Assembly: GCA_964385825.1 (NCBI GenBank)
Contig: CAYLPX010000004.1
Location: forward strand, 4,986 to 68,985
Reading direction: 5' to 3'
From: an uncultured Candidatus Saccharibacteria bacterium
GTDB lineage: Bacteria > Patescibacteriota > Minisyncoccia > Phycocordibacterales > JAKFXT01
DNA length: 64,000 bases
Each line of letters opens with the position of its first letter. Positions within the stretch are counted from its first letter, which is position 1. The translations under genes and the position numbers were made by a program. Below the pieces are notes generated by a model that saw only the letters and a list, made by a program, of their open reading frames with translations, ran no database searches and had not been told where the DNA came from. Shown one piece after another: positions 3,338-41,496 of the stretch.

Positions 3338-3358
3338 TGCGCGGCTGACCGGACTTGA
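3338..3358 (+). repeat. attL-like 21-bp direct repeat (copy of the tRNA-Asp 3' end) at the left end of island 1
   Basis: TGCGCGGCTGACCGGACTTGA is identical to 12685-12705, which overlaps the 3' end of tRNA-Asp. Confidence 0.8.
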
Positions 3359-3620
3359 GGGTCAAGTTTCTAAGCTCGTAGACTCGCTAAGAACTTCCTC
3401 CCCGGGCTCGCCGTCGCTTTGCGACATGGCTCCGCCTGTTCAAGTCCGGACGAAAATGAAGCAGTTCATTTTCTTCAGCCGCGCAAGCAAAAATCCCCTT
3501 TCGGGGATTTGCTTGCGCGGACTAGTGGATGATGTTAGAACTGGATTTGAGAGTAGAAATGACGCTACAATCTACATTCCAAACTTCAAATCACTAGAGT
3601 TATCATAATTAAACTCTATT

Positions 3621-4022
3621 TTAACTTTGAAAGTTAACCTCAAATGGATACATACCCATTCCACAAGTTCCTTGAAGTATGCCGAGTTTTTGATTTCCTA
3701 AATCTATATCAGTTGAGCCAGAGTTAGGGAGAGCTTTCGTGATATTCATACTTGGAATACGGATTGATGATGAGCAGTCAAAAGTTCCATTCGTATCAAA
3801 CCGTAAAACAGTTGGTATGTTTGCTTTTGCAACGCTTACTCTTGGCGTATAACCACCCTTTGCTTTGATTTCAATGATTTGTTTTCCATCTACAATACTT
3901 ACATTCTGCACATTTCCAGCTTCTTGTGTTGTATTTTGAGTTGTCGTGCCACCACCTTTAGTGAGCAGAATACCTCCTCCAATAAATACTCCTGCGATGA
4001 TAATAGCTATGGTTGTTTTCAT
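3621..4022 (-). CDS. secreted cupredoxin-like (putative copper-binding) protein
   Basis: Signal/TM MKTTIAIIIAGVF, then a beta-rich domain with the Cys/Met cluster GTCGMGMYPF. It is the last gene of the cop operon. Confidence 0.4.
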   Translation of the reverse strand: MKTTIAIIIAGVFIGGGILLTKGGGTTTQNTTQEAGNVQNVSIVDGKQIIEIKAKGGYTPRVSVAKANIPTVLRFDTNGTFDCSSSIRIPSMNITKALPNSGSTDIDLGNQKLGILQGTCGMGMYPFEVNFQS

Positions 4023-4035
4023 AAATGTAATTATA

Positions 4036-5055
4036 CTAAAAATTAAATACTGGCGGTATAGCTCCAATAACAACCAGTGCGTTAACAAGATTAAACAGTG
4101 CAAATAATATCACAATAAGTCCTGCGGATTTGAAAAATACGCCAGACTTTTTGCTATTTTGGATACTAAATGAACTAAAACTAATAAGGGCAAGTACTGG
4201 TAATGTGCCTAGAGCAAATGAGAGCATTGTAAGACCGCCTTTCAAAAAACTACCTGTAGTGAGAGTGTAGAGTTGCATTGACTGGGTAAACCCACAGGGC
4301 AAGAAGAATGTCCCAATGCCAACCAACAGGGGTGTTAGTGTGTGGTTCAAGTTTGAAATACTGTGAGCACGCTTTGAAATAAACTTTGGCATTGATGGTT
4401 GTAATTGTTTTGCCCAAGGAAATACATCAAGCAAGTTGATACCAAGTATAATCATTACAACTGCGATAATAAGACCGAGTATAAATGTTCCTGTTGTGCC
4501 AAGTGTAAACGCAGAGCCAATCGCACCTATAACACCCCCAAGAATGAAAAAGGCGACAATACGCCCTCCGTGAAACATAAGCTGTGGTTTTATTTTGTCT
4601 CCCTCTTTAGCAAATGTTGCAGACATAGAAAGAACTAATCCTCCTACAACCGCCATACAAGTAGAAAGTGAGGCAATGATACCTACAAAGAATGCCGTGC
4701 CATAAGTTACATTACCACCACCAACAAGATTGACGATGCCAAGTTTTTGTAGAAGCACAAACAAGAACGCAAAACCCACCGCAATGGGTATCGCAATTTT
4801 GAAATCAGACCACCTCTTTTGAATTAAATGCTTCTCAACTGATATTGTATATCCGTTATCTTTAACAAGCATAGTAAGTTCTTCTGCAATTTCTATGTCT
4901 GTTTTGTCTCCAAAATCACCAACAATTTCTACTGAATGATTTTTGAGTTTTGATATAACTTTACTTACATTCGGCAAGTCGCCAATTTTACTCTCTGTCA
5001 GAATGACGCAAGCGTTACAATGCATACCGTGAATGTGAAATGTATATGTTTTCAT
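4036..5055 (-). CDS. HMA-domain fused to a DsbD_2/CcdA-like polytopic membrane protein
   Basis: N-terminal GMHCNAC metal-binding motif, then ~8 TM segments carrying STCMAV and FLPCGF Cys motifs. Confidence 0.55.
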   Translation of the reverse strand: MKTYTFHIHGMHCNACVILTESKIGDLPNVSKVISKLKNHSVEIVGDFGDKTDIEIAEELTMLVKDNGYTISVEKHLIQKRWSDFKIAIPIAVGFAFLFVLLQKLGIVNLVGGGNVTYGTAFFVGIIASLSTCMAVVGGLVLSMSATFAKEGDKIKPQLMFHGGRIVAFFILGGVIGAIGSAFTLGTTGTFILGLIIAVVMIILGINLLDVFPWAKQLQPSMPKFISKRAHSISNLNHTLTPLLVGIGTFFLPCGFTQSMQLYTLTTGSFLKGGLTMLSFALGTLPVLALISFSSFSIQNSKKSGVFFKSAGLIVILFALFNLVNALVVIGAIPPVFNF

Positions 5056-5057
5056 AA

Positions 5058-7349
5058 TTACAGTTTCATATTTTTAATTCGCAATGAGTTTACAACGACC
5101 GTTACACTCTCAAACGCCATAATTGCTCCTGCTATGGCAGGACTTAATGTCCAGCCAAAGAAAGGAAAGAGTATGCCACCTGCTATCGGTATACCTACAG
5201 AGTTGTATCCGAAGGACCAGATAAGGTTCTGCCAGATTGTTTTATTCGTTCTCTGTGCAAGGTGTATAGCTTCGGCGACTTTTACAATATCGCCCTTTAA
5301 TATAACAATGTCGGAACTTTCAATGGCAATGTCCGAGCCATCACTCATAGATATAGCTACATCGGCTTGAGCAAGTGCGGGGGCATCATTTACACCATCA
5401 CCAACCATCGCTACTTTGAGACCTTTCTTCTGCAATTCTTTTACAATGTTCAACTTATCTTCTGGTTTTACATCAGAATACACTTCGTCTATACCTAGAC
5501 CCTTGGCGATTGCCTCACTTGTCGCTTTATGGTCGCCAGTTGCCATCACTACTTTTAATCCCAGCCCTTTTAGTTTAGTGATTTCATCTTTTGCCTCTGA
5601 TTTTATTGTGTCGTGTATTTTAATCAAAGAAAGAACTTCATTATCATCAGCGAGATAAAGTTCACGACCGCTTTCAAAACGAGTGTCATCGAAATCTTTT
5701 TTTACGGTTTCCTCAGATTGTTTGAGTACACTTGCAATATAGGCACGAGAGCCGAGATAGTATTTTTTGCTTTGATATATTGCAGTTACTCCCTTACCAG
5801 CAATTTCACTCAAATCATTAATAGGGAGTGGGGAGATATTATTTTCTTTGAGCCATAGTGCGACACTTTCGGATACTGGATGTTTGGAAGATTTCGTAAT
5901 TGCATAAATAAGTGATTGATTAAATGAAATATGCTCTGGTTCACAAATATGATTTTTATCCCTACAATACACACCCTCAATAGCGAGTTTATTGTGAGTA
6001 AGAGTGCCTGTTTTATCAAATACAATCGCAGTAACTTTTGCAAGCTTTTCCAAGCTCTCTGCATTTTTAATGAGTATTCCTCTCTCTGCTCCACGTCCTA
6101 CGCCTGTAATGATAGCTGTTGGAGTAGCGAGCCCTAGCGAACACGGACACGCAATAACAAGCACCGCCATTGTCGTAGAAATTGCATAAGCAAATGCTTT
6201 AGTAAGCCCTAAACTGGCAGGTCCAAATATCATCCAAGAGGCGAAAGTAAGTATTGCAATTCCAATTACTACATACACAAACACTCCCGATATTCTATCT
6301 GCTGTACGTTCAATCGGAGCTTTTGAGTTTTGTGCGTTTTCAACGATTGAAATTATATGAGCAAGTGCAGTATCTTTCGGGTCTTTAGTTACTTTGATAT
6401 GCAATATACCTTGAAAGTTTTGCGTGCCTGCAAAAACAGTATCATTTACTCCTTTATCTACGGGAATTGCTTCACCTGTGAGCGTTGCTTCATCAATTGA
6501 ACTTGAACCCTCTATGACTATGCCATCAAGTGGTATGCGTTCATTTGGTTTTACAATTACAACGTCCCCGATGTTCACCTTTTCAACAGGAACTTCAATT
6601 TCTTTACCATCACGAACAACCAGTGCTGTTTTACTAGCAAGTCCTGCAAGTTTTTGTAATGCTTCGTTGGTTTTTTTCTTTGCTTTTGCTTCAAGGTGTT
6701 GCCCGAATGCAATCAAACCTATAACAACAATCACGACATCGTAAAAGTTAGAAGTAGTATTTATGTAGGGTGCGAGCACTTTATCAAAAGCAGTGATAAT
6801 AAATGAATATATAAAAGCAACGATAGTTGAAATACCAACTAAGGTATCCATATTTGCTGTGCGAGTTTTCAAGAATATCCAAACAGCCCTTATATATTTT
6901 CTGCCGATACCAAACAGTATAAAAGTGGCAAAGATGGGCATTAAATGGTGAAAAACCTCATACACATTTTCAGACATAGCCCCAATAACATTATTATCAG
7001 CTAGAACCTGCCAGAGCATCATAATGAATGAAAAACCAACCATTGGTAGCACAAACTTCATCTCAAGACCCATATCTTTTTGTTCGTTTTCGGCCATCAT
7101 TTTCATATGGTCGTGCACATCACTTCCATCTATTTTTTTATCGGTATCTTCAAGGGTATAGCCAAATGGAGAAATAACACTACTTAGTGTTTTTGTATCA
7201 ATCTGGTTATTTTCAAAATTAATAACCGCTTTTTCTTGAGCTAATTTTACCGATACAGTGCTAACCCCTGCAACCTTCTTAAGTTTATCTTCTATAAGCA
7301 CGACACAACTCGCACAGTGCATACCTTTTACTTTGTATATATGTTCCAT
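5058..7349 (-). CDS. copA: copper-translocating P1B-type ATPase
   Basis: GMHCASC HMA motif, CPC in TM6, DKTGTLT phosphorylation site, GDGVNDAP hinge. 763 aa. Confidence 0.9.
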   Translation of the reverse strand: MEHIYKVKGMHCASCVVLIEDKLKKVAGVSTVSVKLAQEKAVINFENNQIDTKTLSSVISPFGYTLEDTDKKIDGSDVHDHMKMMAENEQKDMGLEMKFVLPMVGFSFIMMLWQVLADNNVIGAMSENVYEVFHHLMPIFATFILFGIGRKYIRAVWIFLKTRTANMDTLVGISTIVAFIYSFIITAFDKVLAPYINTTSNFYDVVIVVIGLIAFGQHLEAKAKKKTNEALQKLAGLASKTALVVRDGKEIEVPVEKVNIGDVVIVKPNERIPLDGIVIEGSSSIDEATLTGEAIPVDKGVNDTVFAGTQNFQGILHIKVTKDPKDTALAHIISIVENAQNSKAPIERTADRISGVFVYVVIGIAILTFASWMIFGPASLGLTKAFAYAISTTMAVLVIACPCSLGLATPTAIITGVGRGAERGILIKNAESLEKLAKVTAIVFDKTGTLTHNKLAIEGVYCRDKNHICEPEHISFNQSLIYAITKSSKHPVSESVALWLKENNISPLPINDLSEIAGKGVTAIYQSKKYYLGSRAYIASVLKQSEETVKKDFDDTRFESGRELYLADDNEVLSLIKIHDTIKSEAKDEITKLKGLGLKVVMATGDHKATSEAIAKGLGIDEVYSDVKPEDKLNIVKELQKKGLKVAMVGDGVNDAPALAQADVAISMSDGSDIAIESSDIVILKGDIVKVAEAIHLAQRTNKTIWQNLIWSFGYNSVGIPIAGGILFPFFGWTLSPAIAGAIMAFESVTVVVNSLRIKNMKL

Positions 7350-7353
7350 AGAA

Positions 7354-7629
7354 TTATTTTCGCTTAAGCTTATACACTTTTAATACTTCTTCTTTTGCTT
7401 TACCGACCTGCCCAGAAGACATCTGATGATGCACACAATGACTCAGATGGTTTTCAAGAAGAGCATCCTCAATACTTGAAAGACCTTGCTTTACTGCAGA
7501 GGTTTGAGTTATGACATCTATGCAATAGGTATCATTCTCAATTAATTTTTGTAACCCTCTTACTTGACCTTCAATCAGCTTAAGACGGCGAGTCATTTTT
7601 GCTTTATCTTTTTTGTCCATATATTTCAT
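7354..7629 (-). CDS. csoR: CsoR/RcnR-family copper-sensing repressor
   Basis: 91 aa with the Cys/His/Cys W-X-Y-Z signature (C...HCVHH). It lies directly upstream of copA. Confidence 0.8.
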   Translation of the reverse strand: MKYMDKKDKAKMTRRLKLIEGQVRGLQKLIENDTYCIDVITQTSAVKQGLSSIEDALLENHLSHCVHHQMSSGQVGKAKEEVLKVYKLKRK

Positions 7630-7641
7630 ACGGACAAGTTT

Positions 7642-7659
7642 ATACCCCTAGGGGGTATA
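7642..7659. promoter_or_regulatory. candidate CsoR operator (GC-tract palindrome)
   Basis: ATACCCC-TAG-GGGGTAT is a 7-bp inverted repeat of the TACCC..GGGTA type bound by CsoR repressors. It sits 15 nt upstream of the csoR start, in the divergent intergenic region. Confidence 0.6.
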
Positions 7660-7749
7660 TGTCAAAAATCACTTTAAGAATAACAGAAGCGATGATTTTT
7701 TTGTTATAAAAATGCTAAAATGACTAGGTTTTTATGAATTACTATTACT

Positions 7750-9030
7750 ATGAATAAATCTGTCTACAGTTACAAAGTACTTGAACTTATAGCCAAAGAA
7801 GTTGGTGGTTACTTCACTGGTTACGAAATTGTAAAAATCTTGGAAAAGATGGGGATACCCCGTGAAAAGATACAGTACCCAAATACAAAGTGGTGGACAA
7901 TAAATGAAGCTTTCAAATACATTAAGGAAACTGACACTGACCCCGAGAACACAATATCAAAGCTGATAATGGATTTTCTCCATCCACTAAACCATAATCT
8001 AAATGAGGAAAGTGCTGGAAAGCTGGCAGACAAACTTCAAAAATATCTGAAGTATGACAATTTTTATATAGAAGATACGGGTAGTGAATATCTGGTGCTT
8101 TCTGATGAAGAGATGGAGGAAATGCACGCTCACTCCCCAGAGGAAGAAGAGCGAAGTGATAAAGACAGAAAACTCTATGAAAAAAAGATAAAAGAAAGTG
8201 GAGATATTATAAAAGAACTTAGAGATAGCCATCAGATGTATATGGATATTGTTGAGATTTTTTGCCAAAACATCAAAAAACCAACAAAGGACCTAAACGA
8301 TGCGTATCTATTTCTCTCAAAAAACATTGAGGATGCGGTCAATAATTTGAGCTTTAAGCATTTCAAGTTACCTTTTTATAAACCCTTCAAAAATGATTTG
8401 TATTCAGCAGAGCTTGAATGGAATGGTACTGGCAATTTATCCGACTTACGACTGGGACCTCGCCTATCTTGGGATGTAGTGAGACCCTCTTTATATAGAA
8501 TGCATAGTGAAATAATAAAAATACAAAATCTTTCTGAAAGAGACACAGTATTGACTGACGAGGAAAAGAGACGGGAGGAAATAATAGAACTAATTTCTCA
8601 AAAAAGAGTGCAGAAAATACCCACAAATGAAATTGTTAAAAAAATGGAGATTTTGCACAAGTACGAAAAAACTACCCCAAGTTCGTTTTACGTTACAAAA
8701 AAAGACGATGACTTTTATTATAAAGGTCTTCACGTACTCGCTTCCAAGAAAAAAAATGACTACTACAAGGTCTTCTGCGCCCTATATGCAAAACTTCCCG
8801 AAGGTGGAGAAGTGCAATATAAGGAACTTATCGCCGAAATAAAAAGTCGTATGCCTGAACAGAAGAATAAAACTGTTGATGAGATGCGGAAGTTCATCCA
8901 AAGAAACCTCACGGATAGAAGTAATGGATTTATGAGATACGCCAAAATAGCTGAAACAGAAGATAACGGGAAGCCATTGATTTCTATATCTCGTGGCTCT
9001 GGCGTTGTCTTTAACAACAAGATGGGGTAA
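7750..9030 (+). CDS. hypothetical protein (426 aa) of unknown function; island 1 cargo
   Basis: Long ORF with an acidic low-complexity linker (SDEEMEEMHAHSPEEEERSDKDRK) between two domains. No recognisable motif. Confidence 0.5.
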   Translation: MNKSVYSYKVLELIAKEVGGYFTGYEIVKILEKMGIPREKIQYPNTKWWTINEAFKYIKETDTDPENTISKLIMDFLHPLNHNLNEESAGKLADKLQKYLKYDNFYIEDTGSEYLVLSDEEMEEMHAHSPEEEERSDKDRKLYEKKIKESGDIIKELRDSHQMYMDIVEIFCQNIKKPTKDLNDAYLFLSKNIEDAVNNLSFKHFKLPFYKPFKNDLYSAELEWNGTGNLSDLRLGPRLSWDVVRPSLYRMHSEIIKIQNLSERDTVLTDEEKRREEIIELISQKRVQKIPTNEIVKKMEILHKYEKTTPSSFYVTKKDDDFYYKGLHVLASKKKNDYYKVFCALYAKLPEGGEVQYKELIAEIKSRMPEQKNKTVDEMRKFIQRNLTDRSNGFMRYAKIAETEDNGKPLISISRGSGVVFNNKMG

Positions 9031-9205
9031 ATCCAACCTTTTCCTTAAAAATAAATAACTTGCCCTGAAAATAACGCCCAAAACAATGGGTGTTTTTTCA
9101 TTTTCAAGAAATCAAAAGAAATACGCAGAACACCCTAAAACAGCAAAAATCAAGATAGTGCATTAGTCGTTATGCACTGTCATTACAAACAATTACCCAA
9201 CCTAT

Positions 9206-9496
9206 ATGGCGAACAGGAAAGCAAAAAAGTCATCGGGGAATAACCAGTCATACCTTGATGACCCGTCTGTTGTTTTTACAACTTACGACCTCGGAGTATC
9301 AACCGCACTTTTATGTGCGGGTTTTGAGCTTTTGTCAGTAGATAGAAAGAACCAAAAGAAAGCGTTGTTCATCTTCAAAAAAGAAGAAGGGATTGAGGAG
9401 ACGGCAAACCGCTACTTCTCGGATAGATTAGATGTCAAAGCAAGGTCGTTCTTTGACCACCTCAAAGCACTCAAGAATAAACTCTATAGCGAATAA
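9206..9496 (+). CDS. DUF5659-like small protein
   Basis: TYDLGVSTALLCAGFELLSVDR...ALFIFKK resembles the DUF5659 family that is common on Patescibacteria mobile elements. Confidence 0.45.
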   Translation: MANRKAKKSSGNNQSYLDDPSVVFTTYDLGVSTALLCAGFELLSVDRKNQKKALFIFKKEEGIEETANRYFSDRLDVKARSFFDHLKALKNKLYSE

Positions 9497-9500
9497 CTCT

Positions 9501-9701
9501 ATGGTGTTGTCGGACGAAAACATTGTTAAGTTCCAAGCTCTCTACAAAGAGCATTTTGGAAAAGAAATCGGCAAAGAAGATGCCTACGAGCAAGGTATGA
9601 AACTTTTGCGATTAACTTCACTTTCCTATCGTCCAATGACGCTCACAGAACTTGAAGCAGTAAAAGCACGGCAAGCAGAACTTTTGCAAAAACAAAAATA
9701 A
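9501..9701 (+). CDS. small hypothetical protein with a homolog on island 2 (35185..35388)
   Basis: MVLSDENIVKFQALYKEHFGKEIGKEDAYEQGMKLLRL aligns with MLSPQAIEKYREIYKAEFGTDLTFDEASEQAQRFLNL. The start is set at the ATG at 9501, so as not to overlap the upstream gene. Confidence 0.5.
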   Translation: MVLSDENIVKFQALYKEHFGKEIGKEDAYEQGMKLLRLTSLSYRPMTLTELEAVKARQAELLQKQK

Positions 9702-9747
9702 ACTGCCGTGCAGGATTCCTTGAAATCCACCGCCAACAAAAATTACT

Positions 9748-10935
9748 ATGGATACAGTCATTATCAAAATATACGGACCGCATAAGTTCAAGATTTTGGA
9801 TAAATCACAATTTGTCCCTGAAATCGTAAGGCGAGAATATAACGACCTTTCGGCTACGGAAAAAGTATCACCAGTAAACCGAACTTACTTACGCCGTTTT
9901 GTACTTCATCCGAATTGGCACGAGCAATATCTGCCACGCGTTGAGATTTTTGAAGCATTAACCGAGGACCGAAAAAACATACGTTATATTCTCAAAGCTA
10001 CGTTTTCTGTCGCAAAATTGCTCTATTGGAATAGCTTGCAAGAGGTAGGCGAGAATGACAAACAAAAGGTAGTTTCTGCCTTAAAATCTGCGCTTGAGAT
10101 GGTTGGCATCATTGTAGACGTTGAAATAATTGAAAATGCCACAGTAGAAGCTGTGCACGCTTGCAAGAATATACCCTTGCCAAAAACAATGCAGATGCGA
10201 GAGATAATCAATGAACTTGCAAAAATAGATATAAATAAAGCATTTGATATAAGCGAGAAACAATGCAAAAAAGGTGCGCGAGTGCTTAATATCTACTCTG
10301 GAACTATAGATTGGTCTTTTTACGATAAGATTTCTGACTCATTGCGACCAAAAAACAAACGGAACGATAAGAGCCATATAGGCCACGAAAGAAGCGTAAT
10401 TGAGCGATACAACTTACAAGAGCGAGAGGTATTTCGGTATGAATATCGCATAAAGAAAACTCAAACAACTAAGCGAGAGATAAATACCCTGCTCGGTAGA
10501 GAATACTCAACACAAGTCGTTTTCAAAGACCTCTTCACTCCAAATCTTCTGAAAACACTTGTTCTTAATTCTTGGCACGCGCTCATAGAAAGACCTGAAA
10601 ACCAGATTTCACTTTTTAGCACTATTGATAAACTTGGACTTTTCCTACACATACTCTCCGAAGCAAAGAAGCGAGGTGAAAAAGCCCACAGTATGAATAA
10701 TGCTCTTATATCCTACGGACTGGCAACGGCAATACGGGACCACGGAGCAAAGGAAGTGCGAGGGGCGATATTTGATGTGTGGAGTAACAGTCATTCCGAA
10801 CGATTGACCAAAAAAATAGAGCTATCATCAGAATTAACAAAGAGGTTGCCATATTCAAACAACATAACTTTCATTGATACAGCTCTTGAAAGATACGAGC
10901 TTATCACCTTAACTTCACTGGAAAATGGCGTATAA
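9748..10935 (+). CDS. hypothetical protein, possibly a rolling-circle replication initiator (Rep_trans-like)
   Basis: 395 aa. FYDK and FRYEYRIKK elements are reminiscent of the Tyr-containing catalytic motifs of Rep_trans proteins. The assignment is weak. Confidence 0.3.
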   Translation: MDTVIIKIYGPHKFKILDKSQFVPEIVRREYNDLSATEKVSPVNRTYLRRFVLHPNWHEQYLPRVEIFEALTEDRKNIRYILKATFSVAKLLYWNSLQEVGENDKQKVVSALKSALEMVGIIVDVEIIENATVEAVHACKNIPLPKTMQMREIINELAKIDINKAFDISEKQCKKGARVLNIYSGTIDWSFYDKISDSLRPKNKRNDKSHIGHERSVIERYNLQEREVFRYEYRIKKTQTTKREINTLLGREYSTQVVFKDLFTPNLLKTLVLNSWHALIERPENQISLFSTIDKLGLFLHILSEAKKRGEKAHSMNNALISYGLATAIRDHGAKEVRGAIFDVWSNSHSERLTKKIELSSELTKRLPYSNNITFIDTALERYELITLTSLENGV

Positions 10936-11084
10936 TGTACTTGTTGACCCAGTTAGGCATAATAAACGCGAGGTATTTTTATTGGACGAAATAGTACCCG
11001 AAAGGGGCGGTCTGCCAACTATCCGTTCAATCCTCGCGATTGCCTATAGCTGGGTCAACCAGACCGTCCCTTTCGGGTTTTTAT

Positions 11085-12695
11085 ATGAATACAGATAAAA
11101 CAAAAATTAAATACTTTCTCTATGCTCGGAAATCGTCCGAGAGTGAGGACAGACAAGTCCAATCAATCGGCGACCAAACAGACCGCATTACAAAACTTGC
11201 GGAAGACGAAAAGTTGGATGTTTTTGAAATCCTCTCGGAAGCTAAGTCAGCGAAAAATCCAAACAATCGTCCTATTTTTGACAAAATGCTTGAGCGGATT
11301 GAAAAAGGAGAAGCGAACGGCATTTTATGTTGGGAAATCAATCGTCTTTCACGCAATCCAGTTGATAGCGGAAAAATACAGTGGCTATTACAACAAGGAA
11401 TTATAAAATCAATCAGAACTATAAATCGTGAGTACAAACCAGACGATAATGCTCTACTTTTGAGTGTTGAGAGTGGGTCAGCTAATCAATTTATTCTGGA
11501 CTTAAAGAAAGGGGTAAAGAGAGGTATTGATAGCAAACTTGAAAAAGGGATGGCTCCTATAATGGCACCTCTTGGATACCTCAATACAAAGATAGAAATA
11601 CGCGGTGAGAATTACATTACAAAAGACCCAGAACGTTTCGCTATCTTGCGCAGAATGTGGGATATGATGCTTACAGGAAACTTTACTCCACCAAAGATAC
11701 GCGACATTGCAAATAATGAGTGGGGCTTACGAACACGCAAGATGAGACGAAGAGGTTCAAAGCCAATTTCCCGAAGTACCATTTATCGCATTTTCACAGA
11801 CCCATTCTATATAGGACTTTTTCAATACGGCGGAAAAACATATCAAGGAAAACATGAAGCGATGGTTACACTTGAAGAATATGACCGAGTGCAAATACTT
11901 CTTGGCAGAGAAGGCAGACCACGACCAAAGGTACACGAGTTTCCTTATACTGGCGTTATACGATGTGGCGAGTGCGGAAGTATGATTACTGCGATTGAAA
12001 AAACAAAGATAATAAAAAAGACGGGGGAACTAAAAACGTTTACTTACTATTATTGCTCCCGCAAAAAAGAAGGTGTGCCGTGTACACAGAATGTATACGT
12101 GAATGGTGAATTGATGAGTGAGCAAATTGAACGAGAAGTTATGAAGATTTCTATTCTGCCCGATTTCAAAAACTGGGCTTTGGAAATCCTAAACCAAAGC
12201 AACGATAAAGAAGTTGACGAGAGAGCCAAAGTATACGAAACGCAACAAAAAGCTCTTGCGGAAACTCAACGTCAACTGGATACGCTAACTAAGATGCGTT
12301 ATCGCGAACTTATTGATGACAACTCATTTATAAAAGAACGAGACGAACTAAAGGCAACAATCACCACACTCAAAAAGAACTTGCTTGAAACCGAAAGCCG
12401 AGCCGACAAGTGGTTAGAACTTACGGAAAAGACCTTTGTATTTGCCCTCTACGCACATAGCTCATTCCTAAACGGCGACATCCAAACCAAAAAAGAGATA
12501 CTTATGGCACTTGGGCAGAACTACACGCTAAAAGACCAAAAACTCGTTATAGTGCCTAACGAATGGCTGAAACCAATCATTGAACAGTATCCAGCGATGG
12601 AAAAAGAATATAAACGGCAAGAACTGAAAAATAACAAGAAACCATATAGACAAAAAGACGCTTTCGCGTCTCTTCGTCCCTTACTGCGCGGCTGA
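11085..12695 (+). CDS. large serine recombinase (resolvase N-domain + recombinase domain + zinc ribbon)
   Basis: YARKSSESEDRQVQSIGDQ catalytic-Ser N-terminus, ILCWEINRLSRN, and a CGECGS...YYYCSRKK zinc ribbon. The stop TGA lies inside the att repeat and the ORF overlaps the tRNA-Asp 3' end by 9 nt. Confidence 0.85.
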   Translation: MNTDKTKIKYFLYARKSSESEDRQVQSIGDQTDRITKLAEDEKLDVFEILSEAKSAKNPNNRPIFDKMLERIEKGEANGILCWEINRLSRNPVDSGKIQWLLQQGIIKSIRTINREYKPDDNALLLSVESGSANQFILDLKKGVKRGIDSKLEKGMAPIMAPLGYLNTKIEIRGENYITKDPERFAILRRMWDMMLTGNFTPPKIRDIANNEWGLRTRKMRRRGSKPISRSTIYRIFTDPFYIGLFQYGGKTYQGKHEAMVTLEEYDRVQILLGREGRPRPKVHEFPYTGVIRCGECGSMITAIEKTKIIKKTGELKTFTYYYCSRKKEGVPCTQNVYVNGELMSEQIEREVMKISILPDFKNWALEILNQSNDKEVDERAKVYETQQKALAETQRQLDTLTKMRYRELIDDNSFIKERDELKATITTLKKNLLETESRADKWLELTEKTFVFALYAHSSFLNGDIQTKKEILMALGQNYTLKDQKLVIVPNEWLKPIIEQYPAMEKEYKRQELKNNKKPYRQKDAFASLRPLLRG

Positions 12696-12705
12696 CCGGA
12701 CTTGA
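12685..12705 (+). repeat. attR-like 21-bp direct repeat (the genuine 3' end of tRNA-Asp)
   Basis: Identical to 3338-3358. Confidence 0.8.
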
Positions 12706-12760
12706 ACCGGCAACCTCTCGCGTGACAGGCGAGTGCTCTAACCAGTTGAGCTACAACCGC
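12687..12760 (-). tRNA. tRNA-Asp (anticodon GUC)
   Basis: GCGGTTG TA GCTC AACTGGTT AGAGC A CTCGC CTGTCAC GCGAG AGGTT GCCGG TTCAAGT CCGGT CAGCCGC G. CCA is not encoded. Confidence 0.85.
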
Positions 12761-12797
12761 ATTTTTTTCCGAATGCCCTATGCTTTCGCATAGCTCG

Positions 12798-12871
12798 GGT
12801 GCCGATGGGTGGAATCGGACCACCGTTTAGGGCTTATGAGTCCCTCGTTCTAACCATTGAACTACACCGGC
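12798..12871 (-). tRNA. tRNA with CAU anticodon (elongator Met or Ile2) and an unusual T-loop
   Basis: GCCGGTG TA GTTC AATGGTT AGAAC G AGGGA CTCATAA GCCCT AAAC GGTGG TCCGATT CCACC CATCGGC A. G1-C72 pairs, so it is not an initiator. The T-loop has C at position 55 and there is one A-G mismatch in the anticodon stem. Confidence 0.6.
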
Positions 12872-12967
12872 AAAGTAAAACAAAACTAACACGAAAATGG
12901 GGATAATTCAATTGGGCGGCTCAGCGACAAGCACTCGCTCCGCTCGTCTTGTATACCGCTTCCGTCT

Positions 12968-13081
12968 TGCAAGTCCAGTCGTAAAAAGCCTTAGCTTTTT
13001 ACTCCTCTCCGCAACAAGTATGTAAAATGCCTTCATGTTATGAAGGCATTTTACATACTTGTTGCGGGGGCTGGACTTGCA
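12968..13081. repeat. nested palindromic structure: an 11-bp outer inverted repeat enclosing a 9-bp hairpin and a 28-bp perfect hairpin
   Basis: TGCAAGTCCAG (12968-12978) pairs with CTGGACTTGCA (13071-13081). Inside are GTAAAAAGC-CTTA-GCTTTTTAC (12982-13003) and the 59-nt perfect hairpin at 13009-13067, with 28-bp arms and a 3-nt loop (arms CCGCAACAAGTATGTAAAATGCCTTCAT/ATGAAGGCATTTTACATACTTGTTGCGG). Confidence 0.8.
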
Positions 13082-13140
13082 CCAACATCTCAAGGTTATG
13101 AGCCTTACGAATTACTATTACTCTACCCCGCTATATGTGA
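13069..13140 (-). other. degenerate tRNA-like element (CAU anticodon stem-loop and T-arm intact; D-arm and acceptor not canonical)
   Basis: Revcomp is GCGGGGTAGAGTAATAGTAATTCG TAAGG CTCATAA CCTTG AGAT GTTGG TGCAAGT CCAGC CCCCGCAAC. Its T-arm forms one arm of the outer inverted repeat above. Confidence 0.4.
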
Positions 13141-13193
13141 GGACTCCCTCTTGAGAAGCCCATAGTAACAGAAAAGTGCGTTTTGGCAACCCT

Positions 13194-13814
13194 CTATATA
13201 TACTGAAACTCCCGAAACACCTCTTCGTATAGATTTAAAATATGTCGCATTTCACGCTCGGAAAGTTCAAATGAAGATCCCTCATGGGCTATGGCGTTAC
13301 GTGTACGATGGGCCTCCCAGGCCTTATCAATAGTCTTAAAATCTCCTCGATCAACCCTTTTCAAACGCTCGCCGAGCGTATCACCAAGTTCAGAAAAACG
13401 CTCATACACTAACTCATCTAGAATAATATCTGCCTCAAGTATGGCCAGTCTCCATTCATGGGGATTTTGCGAAGCCACGTGCCCTTGTACCTGCTGCCAC
13501 TTATGGAACCCTGGCGCAAAATTACTTTCTCCATGTGCCTCCAAACGATGCCAGTAATTATGCTCAGCATCGTGCATAGCTATATTTTCAGCAGTACGAA
13601 TCTGATACAACCTAAATAAGCTGTAGAAAATAGCAATAAGAAGAAAAATGGAAGCGCAGGTAGAAACAAAAGCAAAAGTAAGGTACGCGTTTTTCCAAAC
13701 CGCTACTATTTCTTCTTTGTGTGCGAGAGCGTCACTTCCACCTGTAGTGAAAAGACCGTAAATCCACACAAAAATAGATTCAATATCGAGGGACGGAACA
13801 TTGGTAATTTCCAT
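13194..13814 (-). CDS. membrane-anchored protein with a C-terminal DUF4145/HEPN-like domain
   Basis: Two TM helices, then a C-terminal region with the R-x4-H motif (HRTRNAIAHEG) that is diagnostic of the HEPN/DUF4145 fold. Confidence 0.4.
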   Translation of the reverse strand: MEITNVPSLDIESIFVWIYGLFTTGGSDALAHKEEIVAVWKNAYLTFAFVSTCASIFLLIAIFYSLFRLYQIRTAENIAMHDAEHNYWHRLEAHGESNFAPGFHKWQQVQGHVASQNPHEWRLAILEADIILDELVYERFSELGDTLGERLKRVDRGDFKTIDKAWEAHRTRNAIAHEGSSFELSEREMRHILNLYEEVFREFQYI

Positions 13815-20955: not shown

Positions 20956-21010
20956 TGCCCTAAGTATAACCTTTAACCAACTACAAAAGAATATCTGTAA
21001 AAAAACAAAA

Positions 21011-21042
21011 ACCGAAGGGAATCCTTCGGTTTTTGTTTTTTT
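21011..21042. terminator. bidirectional rho-independent terminator between pilD and the pilin array
   Basis: ACCGAAGG-GAAT-CCTTCGGT stem followed by TTTTTGTTTTTTT and preceded by AAAAACAAAA. Confidence 0.75.
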
Positions 21043-21053
21043 AGACTTGAAGT

Positions 21054-22509: not shown

Positions 22510-22580
22510 AGAAAAATTATAACAGCTTATTAACCAGTAAAACAAGTTTTTAATGCACAGTGCTTTACTAAAAACAAAAA

Positions 22581-22605
22581 CTCCAAGCACATGCTTGGAG
22601 TTTTT
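22581..22605. terminator. rho-independent terminator between pilin paralogs
   Basis: CTCCAAGC-ACAT-GCTTGGAG stem followed by TTTTTGTT, with an A-run on the other side. Confidence 0.7.
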
Positions 22606-22625
22606 GTTACTAAACTAAGAAAAAT

Positions 22626-32545: not shown

Positions 32546-32633
32546 GGAGACGTGGCTGAGTGGTCGAAAGCACCTCACTGCTAACGAGGCGTCCCTTTAA
32601 AGGACCGTGGGTTCGAATCCCACCGTCTCCGCA
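32546..32633 (+). tRNA. tRNA-Ser (anticodon GCU), long variable arm
   Basis: GGAGACG TG GCTGAGTGGTCGAAAGC A CCTCA CTGCTAA CGAGG CGTCCCTTTAAAGGACC GTGGG TTCGAAT CCCAC CGTCTCC G. Type-II variable arm. CCA not encoded. Confidence 0.85.
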
Positions 32634-34341
32634 AACTTGGAATATCTACCGCAAAAGGTAGATATTCTGCTTTATTAGAGCCATCATTTTTAGGTTCGAA
32701 CGCTTTTGTCGTGTTCGGGTATCTCACTGCTATCGCTGCGTAGAGATCGAGCGGATTCCTCAAGGAAATACTCAACTTTTTATCTTTTAGGATTATGTTC
32801 GATCGCGATAGTGATGCGAAGATGTCTCGCTTCTGTTCAGGAGCACCTTCTTCAAACCACAATCGTGCTGCTGTGGCGAAACTGAATGAGTTCTCGGCCC
32901 AGTCCACCCACTCGTCGATCTTGCGTCCGGTATTTTGCCGTGAAGCCTCAATCGCATGCTTTTCATCCATAAGCACTTTTCGTTGTGGCGTGTATTCCTC
33001 AAGAGATAGCAAAGACTGATCTGCGTTTTCCGGTGATGTGTAGAGTCGTGTGAGATTTTGGAGTTGCTGCACGATATCCTTGTAGCGCTTTTCCTGCACG
33101 TCGATTGTTACGTTTTGGTTTTTGATTTGCTGATCGTTATCTTTTGCAAGTTCTTCCAATGCCCATTTCGTAAATGCGCTAGAGAGTTCTATTTTTGAGA
33201 GAGCGGAATCGAGAAGAAATTCAAGATCTTCGGCTCGGACCGATGTTTGCGTACACTTTGGATTTTTACGCTTTGTACAGTGATAATAAACATAATGTAG
33301 CGTGGTTGGATTCACCATATCCGCGATCTTTCTTTTACACTTGGGGCAGGCGTCTTTATTTGGAGAGGCGAACTTATGTTTGCATGAATCACAGATGATC
33401 TGATGTTTTTCTTCTGCTGTAACCATTGAGCCGCATTCGCCGCACTCCGTTCTGCCTGTGAATGGAAAGAAGTGACCGTTGCGAGGGTGTGCTTTTCCTT
33501 TGCGACCCAGTTTCTGCTGTATAAGTTCAAATTGATCCATCGTGATCATCGGCTCATGCGCTCCTTTCACCAATTCCTTCTCACCGGTGTCATGATTCCG
33601 TGCCTCAAAGTATCCAGTGTAAAAGGGTTCGGTAAGTAAGCGATAGATGCCCGCCATGGATACTATTTTGCCGCCTTGCCGTTTTGTTTGCCGCGTTCGC
33701 AAGCCCCACTTCTTCGCTTGAAGATAGAGTTGTCGCACCGAATAGTGCCCGGCAAGATATTCCTCGAAGATCCGCTTCACTAGATCAAATCGCTCGGGAT
33801 CTGGAACGATTGTTTTCTCTCCCTTGAGAGTGTGGATATTGTTGAGATAGCCGATCGGTGCAACTCCATTTCTCCACCCTTGCAGCGTTTTTGCACGGAG
33901 TCCTCTCTTCACGTTCGTGCTCAAATCGCGGATGTACTGATTTGCCATGCCGAACTCGAGCGAGGCAAGAAGCACGTTGTCCTCCGGATAGTAATCGCGT
34001 TCGACTGTTTTGATGTGTTGGATGATACCTTTTTGAAGCATCCAACTTATGCGTCCGGCATCAACCGGATTGCGGGCGAGACGATCCATCTTCCAACAGA
34101 TAATGCCTCGCGCTTCACCTTTCTCGATCCGATCGAGTACGTCATTGAAGACCTTTCGTCCCGGGGCCTTCGCTGACATTGACTCAAAAAGAGGTTCACC
34201 GACTATCTTCAGATTGAGTCGCTTTGCTAGTTTTTTGAGTTCATCAATCTGCGAAGACAAACTCAAAACCTGCCGATCCTCGTCCTCCGTGGACTTTCGG
34301 CAGTAGATGAAGTATTTCAGATTTGGATTTGCTGTTTTCAT
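32581..34341 (-). CDS. large serine recombinase (homolog of the island 1 recombinase); ORF overlaps ~50 nt of tRNA-Ser
   Basis: YCRKSTEDEDRQVLSLSSQ, IICWKMDRLARNPVDAGRISWMLQKGI, a CGECGS zinc ribbon, and a second Cys cluster CDSCKHKF...CPKCKRK. 586 aa. Confidence 0.85.
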   Translation of the reverse strand: MKTANPNLKYFIYCRKSTEDEDRQVLSLSSQIDELKKLAKRLNLKIVGEPLFESMSAKAPGRKVFNDVLDRIEKGEARGIICWKMDRLARNPVDAGRISWMLQKGIIQHIKTVERDYYPEDNVLLASLEFGMANQYIRDLSTNVKRGLRAKTLQGWRNGVAPIGYLNNIHTLKGEKTIVPDPERFDLVKRIFEEYLAGHYSVRQLYLQAKKWGLRTRQTKRQGGKIVSMAGIYRLLTEPFYTGYFEARNHDTGEKELVKGAHEPMITMDQFELIQQKLGRKGKAHPRNGHFFPFTGRTECGECGSMVTAEEKHQIICDSCKHKFASPNKDACPKCKRKIADMVNPTTLHYVYYHCTKRKNPKCTQTSVRAEDLEFLLDSALSKIELSSAFTKWALEELAKDNDQQIKNQNVTIDVQEKRYKDIVQQLQNLTRLYTSPENADQSLLSLEEYTPQRKVLMDEKHAIEASRQNTGRKIDEWVDWAENSFSFATAARLWFEEGAPEQKRDIFASLSRSNIILKDKKLSISLRNPLDLYAAIAVRYPNTTKAFEPKNDGSNKAEYLPFAVDIPSLRRRWDSNPRSFKGTPR

Positions 34342-34667
34342 ACTTTTGTTTCGTTATCGTTATCAGGTAAATAGTCCGGAGAAGTCCAGAAATCTCCAGA
34401 TCGCATATCTTTTCGGATCTTGCGAATCATTGTCGACATTTCTGCAACGCTCTGCGTTTTCGACACATTATGCCCACTTTTCATTTTCCGATTTGGGAAC
34501 AAAATTGCCATTTTTTGTTCATATTCAAGGTTATTTTGCTCTCGCTCCTTCTTCAAGAGTAAAACCGCCTTATCTCCCAATCGGGAGATGGTCATTCCTC
34601 TTTCCGACATCTCCTTTAGGATCGCGTGCGACTCCCTGCTTATGCGTATTTGGACGGTATCTCTCAT
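34338..34667 (-). CDS. ribbon-helix-helix (CopG/Arc-like) DNA-binding protein; translationally coupled to the recombinase
   Basis: N-terminal TVQIRISRESHAILKEMSERGMT beta-strand plus two helices. A 4-nt overlap with the recombinase start. Confidence 0.5.
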   Translation of the reverse strand: MRDTVQIRISRESHAILKEMSERGMTISRLGDKAVLLLKKEREQNNLEYEQKMAILFPNRKMKSGHNVSKTQSVAEMSTMIRKIRKDMRSGDFWTSPDYLPDNDNETKV

Positions 34668-35200
34668 GTTTTTTGGCTTTTATTGATAGAAAACTTATTT
34701 GCTAAATCCTTGCTAGCGGCGCTTATATCGAAGTTTTGGGCGCGCCGCATTGTTTGTAAAACAAAATCTCTGGAAGTATTCTCATTGGTACTCTCTGTAA
34801 TAGAATGCTCGCCTGTGCAAGCCAGTTTGTTAGATTCGACAGAATGATTTGCTCGACCCGTTTCAAGGCATGCTAGAAGCCGGATGATTATGATTTTGAA
34901 GTGGCGTTTTTGTGGGATCCCTCGTTTCTCAACCACGAGCACACCCAACTCTTTCCATCGTCTTATTGCTCGATCTTGTTCGCTTCGGGTAAGGGAGGTT
35001 TCTTCCTGTATTTCGGCGATTGTTTTGTAAATCCAGTCCGGTTTACGTCCTTTGCCCCACCAGTAGAGAAGTTGCGACAGAAAGAGTCCTGCTCCTGCAC
35101 TTTTCGCAATCCGCGCTAATGCAGGATTGAAAGCAATCGGTCTTTCCGAGATATGTTCGATCAAAGCGGAGTTATAGTTTTTGCTTACTTTTTTGGACAT
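34664..35200 (-). CDS. winged-helix DNA-binding protein (DnaD/replisome-organizer-like); possible element replication or regulatory factor
   Basis: KTIAEIQEETSLTRSEQDRAIRRWKELGVLVVEKRG wHTH. 178 aa. Confidence 0.35.
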   Translation of the reverse strand: MSKKVSKNYNSALIEHISERPIAFNPALARIAKSAGAGLFLSQLLYWWGKGRKPDWIYKTIAEIQEETSLTRSEQDRAIRRWKELGVLVVEKRGIPQKRHFKIIIIRLLACLETGRANHSVESNKLACTGEHSITESTNENTSRDFVLQTMRRAQNFDISAASKDLANKFSINKSQKT

Positions 35201-35388
35201 GGTTTCTTTTGCTCTTTGAGCATCTCGAGATATCGGGGGAGCATACGCTTCGGCATCGGCTGCATCACGATCCGAGCCAAGTTCAAAAACCGCTGCGCCT
35301 GTTCCGACGCTTCATCGAAGGTGAGATCCGTGCCGAACTCGGCCTTGTAGATCTCGCGGTATTTTTCGATGGCTTGAGGTGAGAGCAT
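35185..35388 (-). CDS. small hypothetical protein, homolog of island 1 gene 9501..9701
   Basis: See 9501..9701. The start is placed at the internal Met (MLSPQAIEKY). Confidence 0.45.
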   Translation of the reverse strand: MLSPQAIEKYREIYKAEFGTDLTFDEASEQAQRFLNLARIVMQPMPKRMLPRYLEMLKEQKKPCPKK

Positions 35389-35525
35389 GTAAAACGAAAT
35401 CTGCACACTCACGGGGGTGAAATGTGCAGATTCCGTCCCCCGTGAACTGATTGATTCCGTACACTGATTGTCTGAAAAGTCTGGGGTGCTTGGTATCGCT
35501 AGTTTGTAGAAACACAAAATAAAAA

Positions 35526-35545
35526 AGCCCGCATTTGCGGGAGAG
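35526..35545. terminator. rho-independent terminator
   Basis: GCCCGCA-TT-TGCGGGA stem with an A-run on the plus strand (a T-run for minus-strand transcripts from 35592..36152). Confidence 0.6.
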
Positions 35546-35591
35546 AATTGATCGCGAAAAAAGTTATCCCCTAGCAGGAACTAGCGATGAA

Positions 35592-36152
35592 CTATCCGAC
35601 TGTAGGATTTCTCAAAATGACACCTTTTCCTTCGAGAATCTCAATCAGTTTTTCACCTGTCGGAACGGTCTTTGGTAGATCTGAATATCGATAGATATCG
35701 CGAATCATGTTTTGTATCCTTTTTATTCCTTGATCAGGCATATCCTTTGCCTTTACACCATGTGCTTGTAGGTGTCGTTCTATTTTTGTGTAAGGCGCAT
35801 ACCCAAGTCCCACATCTTGAGAACGGAAAATTGCGTGGAATGTTTTTGCGTAAATTGCGTCATTATTTTGGAAAGTAACGGGATTGCCGTTGTATTCGAA
35901 TATGCCATCGTTTCTCTGTATGAGTAATTGATGTGATTTTTTTCGAATCAAACCTATTTTCTTTTCTTCATCTTGCCTGATTTTATCCATTCGAACATTG
36001 AACCGCATTGCTGTTCCGGCTGGATCTGTTAGGTCGAACCAAGGTGATTTATTTTTCTTATTCCCCCGTGATTTCATGGGTATATTATGCGCGTTTTTTC
36101 TGTGATTTGAAACTTCCAATGGCGTCGCGATTGCGGTATTATTGAAAGACAA
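35592..36152 (-). CDS. hypothetical protein (186 aa)
   Basis: No motif recognised. Confidence 0.4.
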   Translation of the reverse strand: MSFNNTAIATPLEVSNHRKNAHNIPMKSRGNKKNKSPWFDLTDPAGTAMRFNVRMDKIRQDEEKKIGLIRKKSHQLLIQRNDGIFEYNGNPVTFQNNDAIYAKTFHAIFRSQDVGLGYAPYTKIERHLQAHGVKAKDMPDQGIKRIQNMIRDIYRYSDLPKTVPTGEKLIEILEGKGVILRNPTVG

Positions 36153-39257: not shown

Positions 39258-39260
39258 GGT

Positions 39261-41458: not shown

Positions 41459-41496
41459 TACAATCCACAGAGGAGTACAATCAGGATGAAGAAACT

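Follow-up and report, generated by a model that had tools for sequence, protein, structure and literature searches.

The structured 3' tail of a probable initiator tRNA gene: a likely remnant of a composite element common in Parcubacteria

Results

Gene order and nested repeats behind tRNA(CAU)#2

We analyzed a 64,000-nucleotide (nt) stretch of DNA from an uncultured Candidatus Saccharibacteria bacterium (contig CAYLPX010000004.1 of assembly GCA_964385825.1, positions 4,986 to 68,985; the window), and in it a set of nested repeats near position 13,000 that follows a tRNA gene with the anticodon CAU, here called tRNA(CAU)#2. We argue that the repeats are the tail of this gene and that they probably border the remnant of a widespread structured element. 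The flanking genes are ligA, gatC, gatA and a gene for a 206-residue membrane protein of unknown function. The whole region is read from the minus strand, on which the order is the open reading frame (ORF) for the 206-residue protein, a promoter-like site, tRNA(CAU)#2, the structured spacer, tRNA-Met and tRNA-Asp. Loci fetched from other genomes carry handles (L004, L006, L108, L127 and so on), and copies of the element together with its repeats are referred to as modules. The features of the spacer and of its two bordering tRNAs are as follows.

12797–12872 (minus): tRNA-Met(CAU), elongator type (ARAGORN, Rfam)
12873–12911 (minus): conserved block upstream of tRNA-Met, possible promoter (TTGAAT, 17 nt, TAGTTT)
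12912–12967 (minus): putative decayed three-way-junction core (AGACGGAAGCG ... GCGAGUGCUUGUCGC ... UGAGCCGCCCAA), then a putative decayed direct copy of the tRNA 3' end (alignment to L108)
12968–12978 (minus): inverted T-loop/T-stem copy (CUGGACUUGCA), in intact modules the 5' strand of core helix P1
12981–13002 (minus): small hairpin hp2, GUAAAAAGC-uaag-GCUUUUUAC, between the inverted acceptor and inverted T-arm copies
13009–13067 (no strand): palindrome with 28-nt arms, inner part AAAAUGCCUUCAU-aac-AUGAAGGCAUUUU terminator-like (repeat search)
13062–13132 (minus): tRNA(CAU)#2, probable initiator (ARAGORN; Rfam RF00005)
13071–13081 (minus): T-loop and T-stem 3' strand (UGCAAGUCCAG), one arm of the 11-bp repeat
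13162–13189 (minus): promoter-like site TTGCCA, 16 nt, TG-TACTAT, just upstream of tRNA(CAU)#2 (consensus match only)

The original prediction, made from the sequence by eye, described three nested repeats at this place, and a repeat search recovers all of them. The 59-nt palindrome (13009–13067) is perfect, with 28-nt arms (13009–13036 and 13040–13067) that are 100% complementary and enclose a 3-nt loop, GTT (13037–13039). The enclosing 11-bp inverted repeat (12968–12978 and 13071–13081) is likewise perfect. The small hairpin has the 9 bp ascribed to it (12981–12989 and 12994–13002), but it lies one base further left than the 12982–13003 originally given. Dinucleotide shuffles of positions 12872–13193 (2000 in total) rule out a chance origin of these repeats: none of them contains a 28-bp hairpin, and the frequencies of a 9-bp hairpin and of a perfect 11-bp inverted repeat within 120 nt are 0.8% and 0.75%, respectively. 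The predicted RNA fold of 12873–13140 has an energy of -113.7 kcal/mol (z = -10.4), and the nested structure folded alone reaches -75.6 kcal/mol, which bears out the description of the region as highly structured. No second copy of the palindrome arm is present in the 64-kb window at up to three mismatches (0 expected by chance).

An assembly artefact in the form of a foldback chimera, the concern voiced together with the prediction, appears close to impossible. An assembly of the Joint Genome Institute (L127), which is independent of the European Nucleotide Archive assembly ERZ4216102 that the window is taken from, is identical base for base over the whole structure, equivalent palindromes are found at the same place in L006 and L108, and no sequence outside the 28-nt arms is mirrored. 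The nested structure is real and non-random. What could be cited for an artefact is that a Logan unitig, L002, stops near the structure. This unitig (SRR23702459, another sample) ends at window position ~13076, within the tRNA T-loop and 9 nt short of the palindrome; a break at this position is not expected from the palindrome alone, and a strain variant diverging there may thus be involved.

Read on the minus strand, tRNA(CAU)#2 ends in ...UGCAAGUCCAG-CCC-CCGCAAC. There follow the inner hairpin of the palindrome, then GUUGCGG, which is complementary to the acceptor strand, then the small hairpin, and finally CUGGACUUGCA, which is complementary to T-loop and T-stem. The outer 7 nt of the right palindrome arm (13061–13067) are the 3' acceptor strand of the tRNA, and 13009–13015 are its inverted copy; the right arm of the 11-bp repeat, correctly recognized from the start as the T-arm of a CAU tRNA, consists of the T-loop and the 3' T-stem strand. 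Taken together, the outer palindrome bases and the 11-bp repeat thus reproduce the final 21 nt of the tRNA in inverted form, with the small hairpin as an interruption, and the pairing seen in the nested repeats is that of the tRNA 3' end with this inverted copy. The stem extends outward because the sequence after the apex is this inverted copy. The structure hence stands behind tRNA(CAU)#2 and is made from the tRNA's own end, contrary to the idea of an insertion into a tRNA. Directly after CUGGACUUGCA we find AGACGGA, which in intact modules occupies the same place and is the start of the conserved element.

tRNA(CAU)#2 is complete and conserved

ARAGORN calls a tRNA-Met with anticodon CAT at 13061–13132, and Rfam model RF00005 matches 13062–13132 on the minus strand with 49.5 bits (E = 1.5e-9; gathering score 29). 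This gene had been taken for a degenerate tRNA-like element. Its arms are indeed non-canonical: the D-loop lacks GG, the T-loop reads UGCAAGU, and positions 1 and 72 form an A1-A72 mismatch, non-canonical in the cmscan alignment. Degeneracy, in contrast, does not agree with the calls of both programs, with the promoter-like site or with the conservation of the gene. The tRNA is identical in L127, L006 and L108, and in L004 as well except for C72, while the intergenic DNA of these four relatives (protein neighbour 71–100% identical) has diverged. Consensus matches like the promoter-like site are not more numerous than in shuffles.

The cmscan alignment places an A11:U24 pair in the D-stem. A 1-72 mismatch and A11:U24 are marks of bacterial initiator tRNAs, in which three consecutive G-C pairs also close the anticodon stem; tRNA(CAU)#2 has only two such closing pairs, G30-C40 and G31-C39. 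The other CAU tRNA (12797–12872) has G1-C72 and U11:A24, the elongator pattern. Judged by these signatures, tRNA(CAU)#2 is probably the initiator. A tRNA-Ile with the anticodon UAU is located at 46995–47068 (plus strand); a lysidine-modified CAU tRNA-Ile may thus be unneeded, in agreement with the two CAU tRNAs being an initiator and an elongator.

These data make one of the candidates of the original prediction, a miniature inverted-repeat transposable element (MITE)-like insertion in a former, now degenerate tRNA, barely credible. It can draw on the unusual D-loop and T-loop, on the 1-72 mismatch, and on the fact that an element of a repeat family does adjoin the tRNA; as the family described below attests, a small mobile or repeat-type element with a structured RNA motif is in fact involved. 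The tRNA, however, is complete, scores well over the Rfam threshold, has a promoter-like site and is conserved while its flanks diverge, and the 1-72 mismatch together with A11:U24 is an initiator signature. Nor does the palindrome behave as a MITE copy, being single in the window and differing in sequence among relatives, with both arms changed. A recombination site, a replication site or a protein-binding cruciform, likewise among the candidates of the prediction, is a conceivable role for the structure.

The same site in relatives

In L006, where the protein neighbour is 84% identical, the palindrome behind the same tRNA is another one, also perfect and with 28-nt arms, and L108 contains a third version, again with perfect 28-nt arms. 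The palindromes of the three lineages differ at several positions, and both arms have changed each time. The L006 version has a canonical U6 tract. L108 retains both the small hairpin and the inverted T-arm at this site; after them stands an intact element, AGACGGAGGCUGACGAGCCGAGUCGGGGUCGCGCAAAAACUUAGGAAAGUUUUAUGCGUGAC, and behind it a direct copy of the tRNA 3' end that has diverged. Covariance model R1 recognizes the L108 core with 68.9 bits (E = 2e-26), and window positions 12967 to 12912 align to it. The element has been lost in L006, and L004 has none of the structure.

The two downstream tRNAs were compared in the same way. Directly after tRNA-Asp, L108 has the gene's own terminator, and L006 has a ~190-nt module between two copies of the last ~20 nt of the tRNA. 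Between the tRNA-Asp modules of the window and L006, the hairpin part is nearly identical and the core subtypes differ. At tRNA-Met, L006 and L108 carry a core between two 52-nt hairpin copies, where the window has one hairpin and no core. Modules are gained and lost and their cores replaced among close relatives. As a separate observation, in L004 (71% identity) the elongator tRNA-Met lies between a GIY-YIG gene and a LAGLIDADG homing-endonuclease-like gene, which take the place of the module (4014–5164).

A family of modules with a conserved three-way-junction core

The core pattern, AGACGGAGC-N(0-30)-GCGAGTCGGGGTCG, is found in at least 120 stretches of species-representative genomes. Nearly all of the matches listed belong to Patescibacteria (Paceibacterota; Yonath-, Taylor-, Lloyd-, Wolfe-, Adler-, Nomura- and Zambryskii-bacteria), and a core sequence of ~30 nt is nearly invariant across many candidate phyla. 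A phage origin of the module was ruled out by the 0 matches among 2.9 million viral contigs. The family shares one plan: the 3' end of a gene, a hairpin, an inverted copy, a conserved three-way-junction core of ~60–100 nt, and a direct copy of the gene 3' end. A hairpin at the position of hp2 is also present in the tRNA-Asp module, at the L108 site and in many other modules. Several copies occur per 8-kb stretch. Compared with a MITE, the whole module is multi-copy, and its inverted flanks and direct repeats are both target-derived and unusually long (19–52 nt). We know of no transposase for the module family. The top neighbour families of the cores include TopA, RelA/SpoT, ParB, IF-2, RbfA and MiaA.

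We derived the structure of the core from an alignment of 104 copies. Helix P1 is formed by the two flanks, P2 by GAC-GGA-GC...GC-GA-GUC with a variable tip, and P3, reached through a GGG linker, by GUCG...UGAC with a variable stem. Cells of the alignment are paired in 90% of cases compared with 73% in shuffles, and double changes number 490 compared with 144, a level reached in 0 of 500 shuffles; with the partners slid against each other, only 33–44% pair. A variant subfamily has compensatory changes in otherwise invariant helices (GCC/GGC and GCUG/UAGC). Mismatches in P3 comprise 58 G-U and only 7 A-C, indicating that the structure is selected on the gene-sense strand. The corresponding numbers for the helix between the tRNA and its inverted copy are 25 G-U and 15 A-C, too small a difference to be decisive.

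A search of the canonical and variant cores against Rfam 15 (4227 models) gave no match. The whole window was scanned at the gathering threshold, positions 12600–13300 and 43300–43650 at E ≤ 10, and positions 250–1000 and eight related loci at E ≤ 1; at all these depths only tRNAs, the LOOT RNA and meaningless hairpin matches were returned. At 12600–13300, only tRNAs reach threshold, and sub-threshold matches of the miRNA type reflect the hairpin. Literature searches by topic and by motif sequence returned no description of the element, and the module family is apparently undescribed. One related locus, L050, has a sub-threshold match to the hammerhead type III ribozyme at 6797–6849 on the plus strand (40.5 bits; gathering score 48.5).

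Modules behind tRNA genes

Half of the cores (63/126) lie within 200 nt, typically 30–85 nt, downstream of a tRNA gene; they are on the same strand in all but one case, and most amino-acid specificities are represented. A terminator-like hairpin is usual in the spacer, and 41/55 spacers contain a T-run of at least 4. An exact inverted copy of the tRNA 3' end of at least 9 nt, and up to 23 nt, is found in 31/51 spacers, compared with 5/1020 shuffles. The right flank carries a direct copy that runs from C56 in the T-loop to the tRNA end and beyond (at least 10 nt in 25/51, up to 47–52 nt). In the nine modules inspected, this copy starts exactly after GUGAC and is 19–52 nt long. When the tRNA body is joined in silico to the right-hand copy, a valid tRNA results in 45/58 modules. 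We found no hidden tRNA among the modules that is completed only by removal of the intervening piece; no tRNA needs joining, because the upstream tRNA is always intact.

Among tRNAs of the fetched loci that have no canonical core downstream, 32% have an inverted copy of their own end downstream, compared with 1% upstream. Inspection of these tRNAs revealed other core variants and types in the same position. Different structured inserts, none of them in Rfam, were also seen between inverted and direct copies in L075, L046, L120, L089, L124 and L050, behind tRNA-Val/Tyr/Ser/Cys/Lys. One type ends in ...ACUGNNCCUGUAAGGNNCGAUUC, and another reads CGGCGGAGU...GGUGCCCAGAC...GAGUCGAGGGAGAU.

Two modules of the window have been displaced from their tRNAs by inserted islands:

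3338–3525 (minus): displaced tRNA-Asp tail module, with palindrome CCGCGCAAGCAAAUCCCC-gaaa-GGGGAUUUUUGCUUGCGCGG, small hairpin, inverted T-arm UCCGGACUUGAA, variant core and direct copy UCAAGUCCGGUCAGCCGCGCA
11040–12695 (plus): large serine recombinase of island 1, stop codon overlapping the tRNA-Asp 3' end (Pfam Resolvase, Recombinase, Zn_ribbon_recom)
12686–12760 (minus): tRNA-Asp(GUC), own tail module displaced by the inserted island (ARAGORN, Rfam)
32581–34341 (minus): large serine recombinase of island 2, overlapping the tRNA-Ser 3' end by ~50 nt
43385–43560 (plus): displaced tRNA-Ser(GCU) tail module; its GCGGAGACG and GUGGGAUUCGAA match the complement of the tRNA 3' end exactly (acceptor strand and T-arm)

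Island 1 (3525–12685, 9.2 kb) separates tRNA-Asp from its module, and its junctions share CCGCGCA. The tRNA-Asp 3' end is repeated at 3338–3352, the acceptor strand is contained in the module palindrome, and the variant core at 3345–3451 scores 31.1 bits with R1 (E = 7e-11). Island 2 (32633–43390, ~10.8 kb) separates tRNA-Ser(GCU) (32546–32632) from its module, with junctions that share CCGCAAA. The canonical core of this module (43451–43544) scores 76.1 bits, but this copy belonged to the training set of R1. Both islands are nested insertions at the tRNA acceptor strand with 7-bp junction repeats. Island 1 has copper-handling genes besides the recombinase gene, and its products include a P-type ATPase of the copper type that has an HMA domain, a membrane protein resembling DsbD, and a cupredoxin-like protein; island 2 encodes its recombinase, a type III restriction enzyme with methylase, and an OLD-family ATPase/nuclease (41413–43359). 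A LOOT RNA (Rfam RF03000, 69.7 bits) is located inside island 2 at 36174–36294 on the plus strand.

Copies behind topA

In several species, the core is found between topA and relA/spoT. Right after GUGAC, the right flank of these copies repeats the last 22–31 codons of topA, and the first ~10 nt of this repeat have their complement in the 10–12 nt that adjoin the core on its left. The first 13–52 nt of the two copies are identical in 4/5 pairs, with one mismatch in the fifth. Five of seven right-hand copies are without frameshift or early stop, and both copies have the same species-specific residues. In a comparison of the two coding copies, the proportion of synonymous differences (pS) is 0.63 and that of nonsynonymous differences (pN) is 0.09, a ratio of 0.15. 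The duplicated topA end thus looks as if it were under purifying selection as coding sequence. An in-frame UGA, provided by GUGAC, precedes the right copy, which is therefore not a separate ORF. Possible reasons for selection on it include removal of the intervening piece from the RNA, frequent precise deletion of the DNA, by which the right copy would become the expressed one, and a foreign origin of the left copy. We considered simple fold-back copying as the source of the inverted segment and rejected it: it fits the tRNA copies, which form a continuous palindrome, but fails for the topA copies, where only ~10 nt, located ~100 nt upstream, are copied inverted.

Discussion

A tRNA tail with a decayed element

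We consider it probable, at roughly 70%, that the region forms the tail at the 3' end of a tRNA(CAU) gene that is functional and of the initiator type, and that it holds a decayed copy of a composite element common in Parcubacteria. The palindrome apex would act as a two-way, intrinsic terminator-like hairpin that ends the tRNA(CAU)#2 transcription unit and insulates it from the next tRNA and from antisense transcription. This next gene, tRNA-Met, appears to have a promoter of its own; the block at 12873–12911 (identical in L127, one difference in L006) was read as a possible promoter by inspection and is not called by the promoter scan. Transcripts that stop at the inner U-tract would leave the tRNA free to fold, and in read-through transcripts the 3' third of the tRNA would be locked in the long hairpin. 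The core would be dead at this locus, and the symmetry of the palindrome would be kept either by selection for a hairpin or by palindrome-correcting template switching. For the family we suggest, with lower confidence, that the core may be a structured RNA read from the strand of the upstream gene, that the 10–23-nt stretch to its left may pair in a guide-like manner with either copy of the gene 3' end, and that the piece between the copies may be skipped or removed, as RNA or by precise DNA deletion, leaving the gene unharmed.

Several observations weigh against this reading. R1 returns no significant match in window positions 12873–13000, and the core at 12912–12967 is identified from its alignment to L108 and from the position of the inverted T-arm next to AGACGGA. 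Given the high score of the L108 ortholog, we take the window copy to be a remnant rather than a member of the family. The palindrome is not called in a terminator scan, because its inner stem is followed by UUUU only. Beyond this U-tract the outer palindrome is still perfectly paired, an observation more in keeping with a process at the DNA level, or with a role of read-through RNA, than with a plain terminator. Mismatches in P1 lack a strand bias (52 G-U and 50 A-C), and this helix may be a by-product of the duplication rather than a selected RNA helix. Clustering of the ORFs within 3 kb of 125 cores gave no mobile-element enzyme. Nor does the reading account for the origin of the inverted copy of each target. 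A more far-reaching version, which we regard as rather unlikely, holds that the core is the working centre of a new bacterial intervening sequence, located in the tRNA T-loop and in the 3' coding ends of genes such as topA, with a spare copy of the downstream gene part; a 10–23-nt guide beside the core, able to pair with the first bases past either boundary, would direct its removal from the RNA by self-cleavage and ligation or by host enzymes, and the palindrome of the window would be a fossil of it.

Alternative explanations

A possible, if less probable, alternative is a DNA-level miniature integrative or mobile element, non-autonomous and moved in trans. It would insert at a gene 3' end, bring a replacement end and be lost by precise deletion between direct repeats, with the palindrome and the flanking inverted repeat serving as single-stranded or cruciform recombinase sites, similar to integron attC or CTX phage attP. 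Such an element would be expected to leave the pattern we see in the direct repeats, which begin exactly at the core boundary and are 19–52 nt long, and in the filled and empty sites of close relatives (tRNA-Asp in L006 and L108; tRNA-Met in L006 or L108 and the window). The different core subtypes at one site in the window and L006, the several copies per 8-kb stretch and the unbiased P1 mismatches point the same way, and perfect palindromes with both arms changed are expected from template-switch correction, a process established from quasipalindrome mutagenesis. Yet no recombinase, transposase or nuclease is enriched near the cores, whose neighbours are housekeeping genes, and viral contigs hold no copies. 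The near-invariance of the core across many candidate phyla, its RNA-like covariation and the strong one-strand G-U bias are also difficult to reconcile with a DNA element. Vertical inheritance is suggested by the topA copies, whose position is shared by several species, and since the inverted segment matches its own target, simple cut-and-paste cannot explain new targets.

That the palindrome is an ordinary two-way intrinsic terminator, with a stem reaching into the tRNA by chance and with unrelated repeats around it, seems decidedly unlikely. The inner A-tract, stem and U-tract (U6 in L006) are those of a terminator, and other long perfect hairpins of this kind lie in the window at 1343–1389, 20998–21043 and 22573–22608 (17–22-nt arms in an A-tract/stem/T-tract order, like ordinary two-way terminators). 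Chance, however, produces the 11-bp repeat and the small hairpin in less than 1% of shuffles each, the three-part arrangement matched to its tRNA is seen again in the window at tRNA-Asp and tRNA-Ser and also in dozens of species, and tRNAs without the canonical core have an excess of own-end inverted copies downstream (32% compared with 1% upstream). Very unlikely, too, is an attachment (att) site, or its scar, of a neighbouring large serine recombinase. Here, it is suggestive that the two islands lie exactly between a tRNA and its tail module, with the 7-bp acceptor-strand repeats noted above, and that att sites of serine recombinases have partial dyad symmetry. But no island is found at tRNA(CAU)#2, the islands using the 3' ends of tRNA-Asp and tRNA-Ser, and the island-free relative L006 has a module. 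The island junctions are at palindrome edges rather than centres; the palindrome has an odd 3-nt loop at its centre, where serine recombinases cut a central dinucleotide, and its sequence varies among relatives while the structure is kept.

Comparison with known systems

Two-way intrinsic terminators behind tRNA genes resemble the module in having an A-tract/U-tract hairpin directly after the tRNA, in line with the T-run in 41/55 spacers. The module of the window differs in its stem of 28 bp, which includes the acceptor strand, in having four U, and in the second helix with the T-arm, after which come a core and a second tRNA end. The repeats REP/BIME (in enterobacteria), Correia (in Neisseria), ERIC and pneumococcal BOX/RUP are, like the modules, short, non-coding, hairpin-forming and multi-copy; they are found downstream of genes, oriented as these are, and are present in some relatives and missing from others. 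In contrast to them, the module has a core that is near-invariant across candidate phyla with covarying stems, and flanks that are inverted and direct copies of the target; we saw no RAYT-type or other transposase near the modules. Integrative elements that target tRNAs (attL/attR, including gene-less, cis-mobilisable forms) share with the modules a direct repeat from T-loop to 3' end on both sides, an intact upstream tRNA and precise loss in a relative. The modules, however, are 100–250 nt long, have no integrase, add an inverted copy and also occur in the coding end of topA. The serine-recombinase islands of the window are true integrative islands, and their insertions are separate from the modules.

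Integron attC and CTX-phage attP sites offer an analogy only: two inverted segments pair, the tip is variable or structured, and the arrangement is strand-specific. attC has conserved paired boxes and a variable tip, whereas the module has a conserved tip (the core) and paired segments that derive from the target; there is no integron integrase context. tRNA introns (in bacteria, group I introns of the anticodon loop; in archaea, introns at non-canonical positions, the T-loop among them) likewise provide an analogy only, and this solely for the intervening-sequence reading, in that the right-hand copy starts at T-loop position 56 and joining gives a valid tRNA in most cases. The upstream tRNA of a module, in contrast, is complete without removal, and the module has no group I or bulge-helix-bulge signature. 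Theta ribozymes, minimal ribozymes of the HDV (hepatitis delta virus) type next to phage tRNAs for which a role in tRNA 3'-end processing has been proposed, are small structured RNAs immediately downstream of tRNA genes (PMC10879173). The modules differ in that their core lies 30–85 nt behind the tRNA, after a hairpin, and in being chromosomal rather than viral. HDV-like and other ribozyme families gave no match at E ≤ 10 in the scanned stretches of the window or at E ≤ 1 in the eight related loci.

Parcubacteria and their relatives are a very large, mostly uncultured part of bacterial diversity and have tiny genomes. A near-invariant non-coding element in more than 100 species with streamlined genomes is unlikely to be junk, and the ends to which this one is linked are those of essential genes and tRNA genes. 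Without ready precedent are the construction of each copy from its own target in inverted and in direct form, the different cores at the same site in close relatives, and the protein-level selection that appears to act on both copies of the topA end. Should the piece be removed from RNA, the modules would represent a bacterial intervening sequence of a new class, and perhaps a new ribozyme as well; should it move as DNA, they would represent a new, harmless way to target gene 3' ends. The covariance model allows annotators to label hundreds of unexplained intergenic structures, and it also flags tRNA tails that are used as landing sites by serine-recombinase islands.

Other features of the window

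A tRNA-Thr(GGU) gene at 400–655 on the minus strand is split after the anticodon by an insert of ~190 nt, with the 5' part GCCGAGAUAGCUCAGUUGGUAGAGCACAUCCAUGGU and the 3' part ...AAGGAUGAGGUCCCGAGUUCGAUCCUCGGUCUCGGCUCCA. The split gene is not called by ARAGORN, and its counterpart in L108 is uninterrupted. Rfam finds no group I intron in it at E ≤ 1; the insert contains a segment, UAAGAUACAGUC, that we take to resemble the conserved group I core.

The 206-residue ORF upstream of tRNA(CAU)#2 had been labeled HEPN-like, which was a guess: the protein has no Pfam or PDB match. Its homologues all belong to Patescibacteria/Parcubacteria, and it is widespread in Parcubacteria. The protein (13194–13814, minus strand) has a hydrophobic N-terminal segment and, near its C terminus, an R-x4-H motif (RNAIAH).

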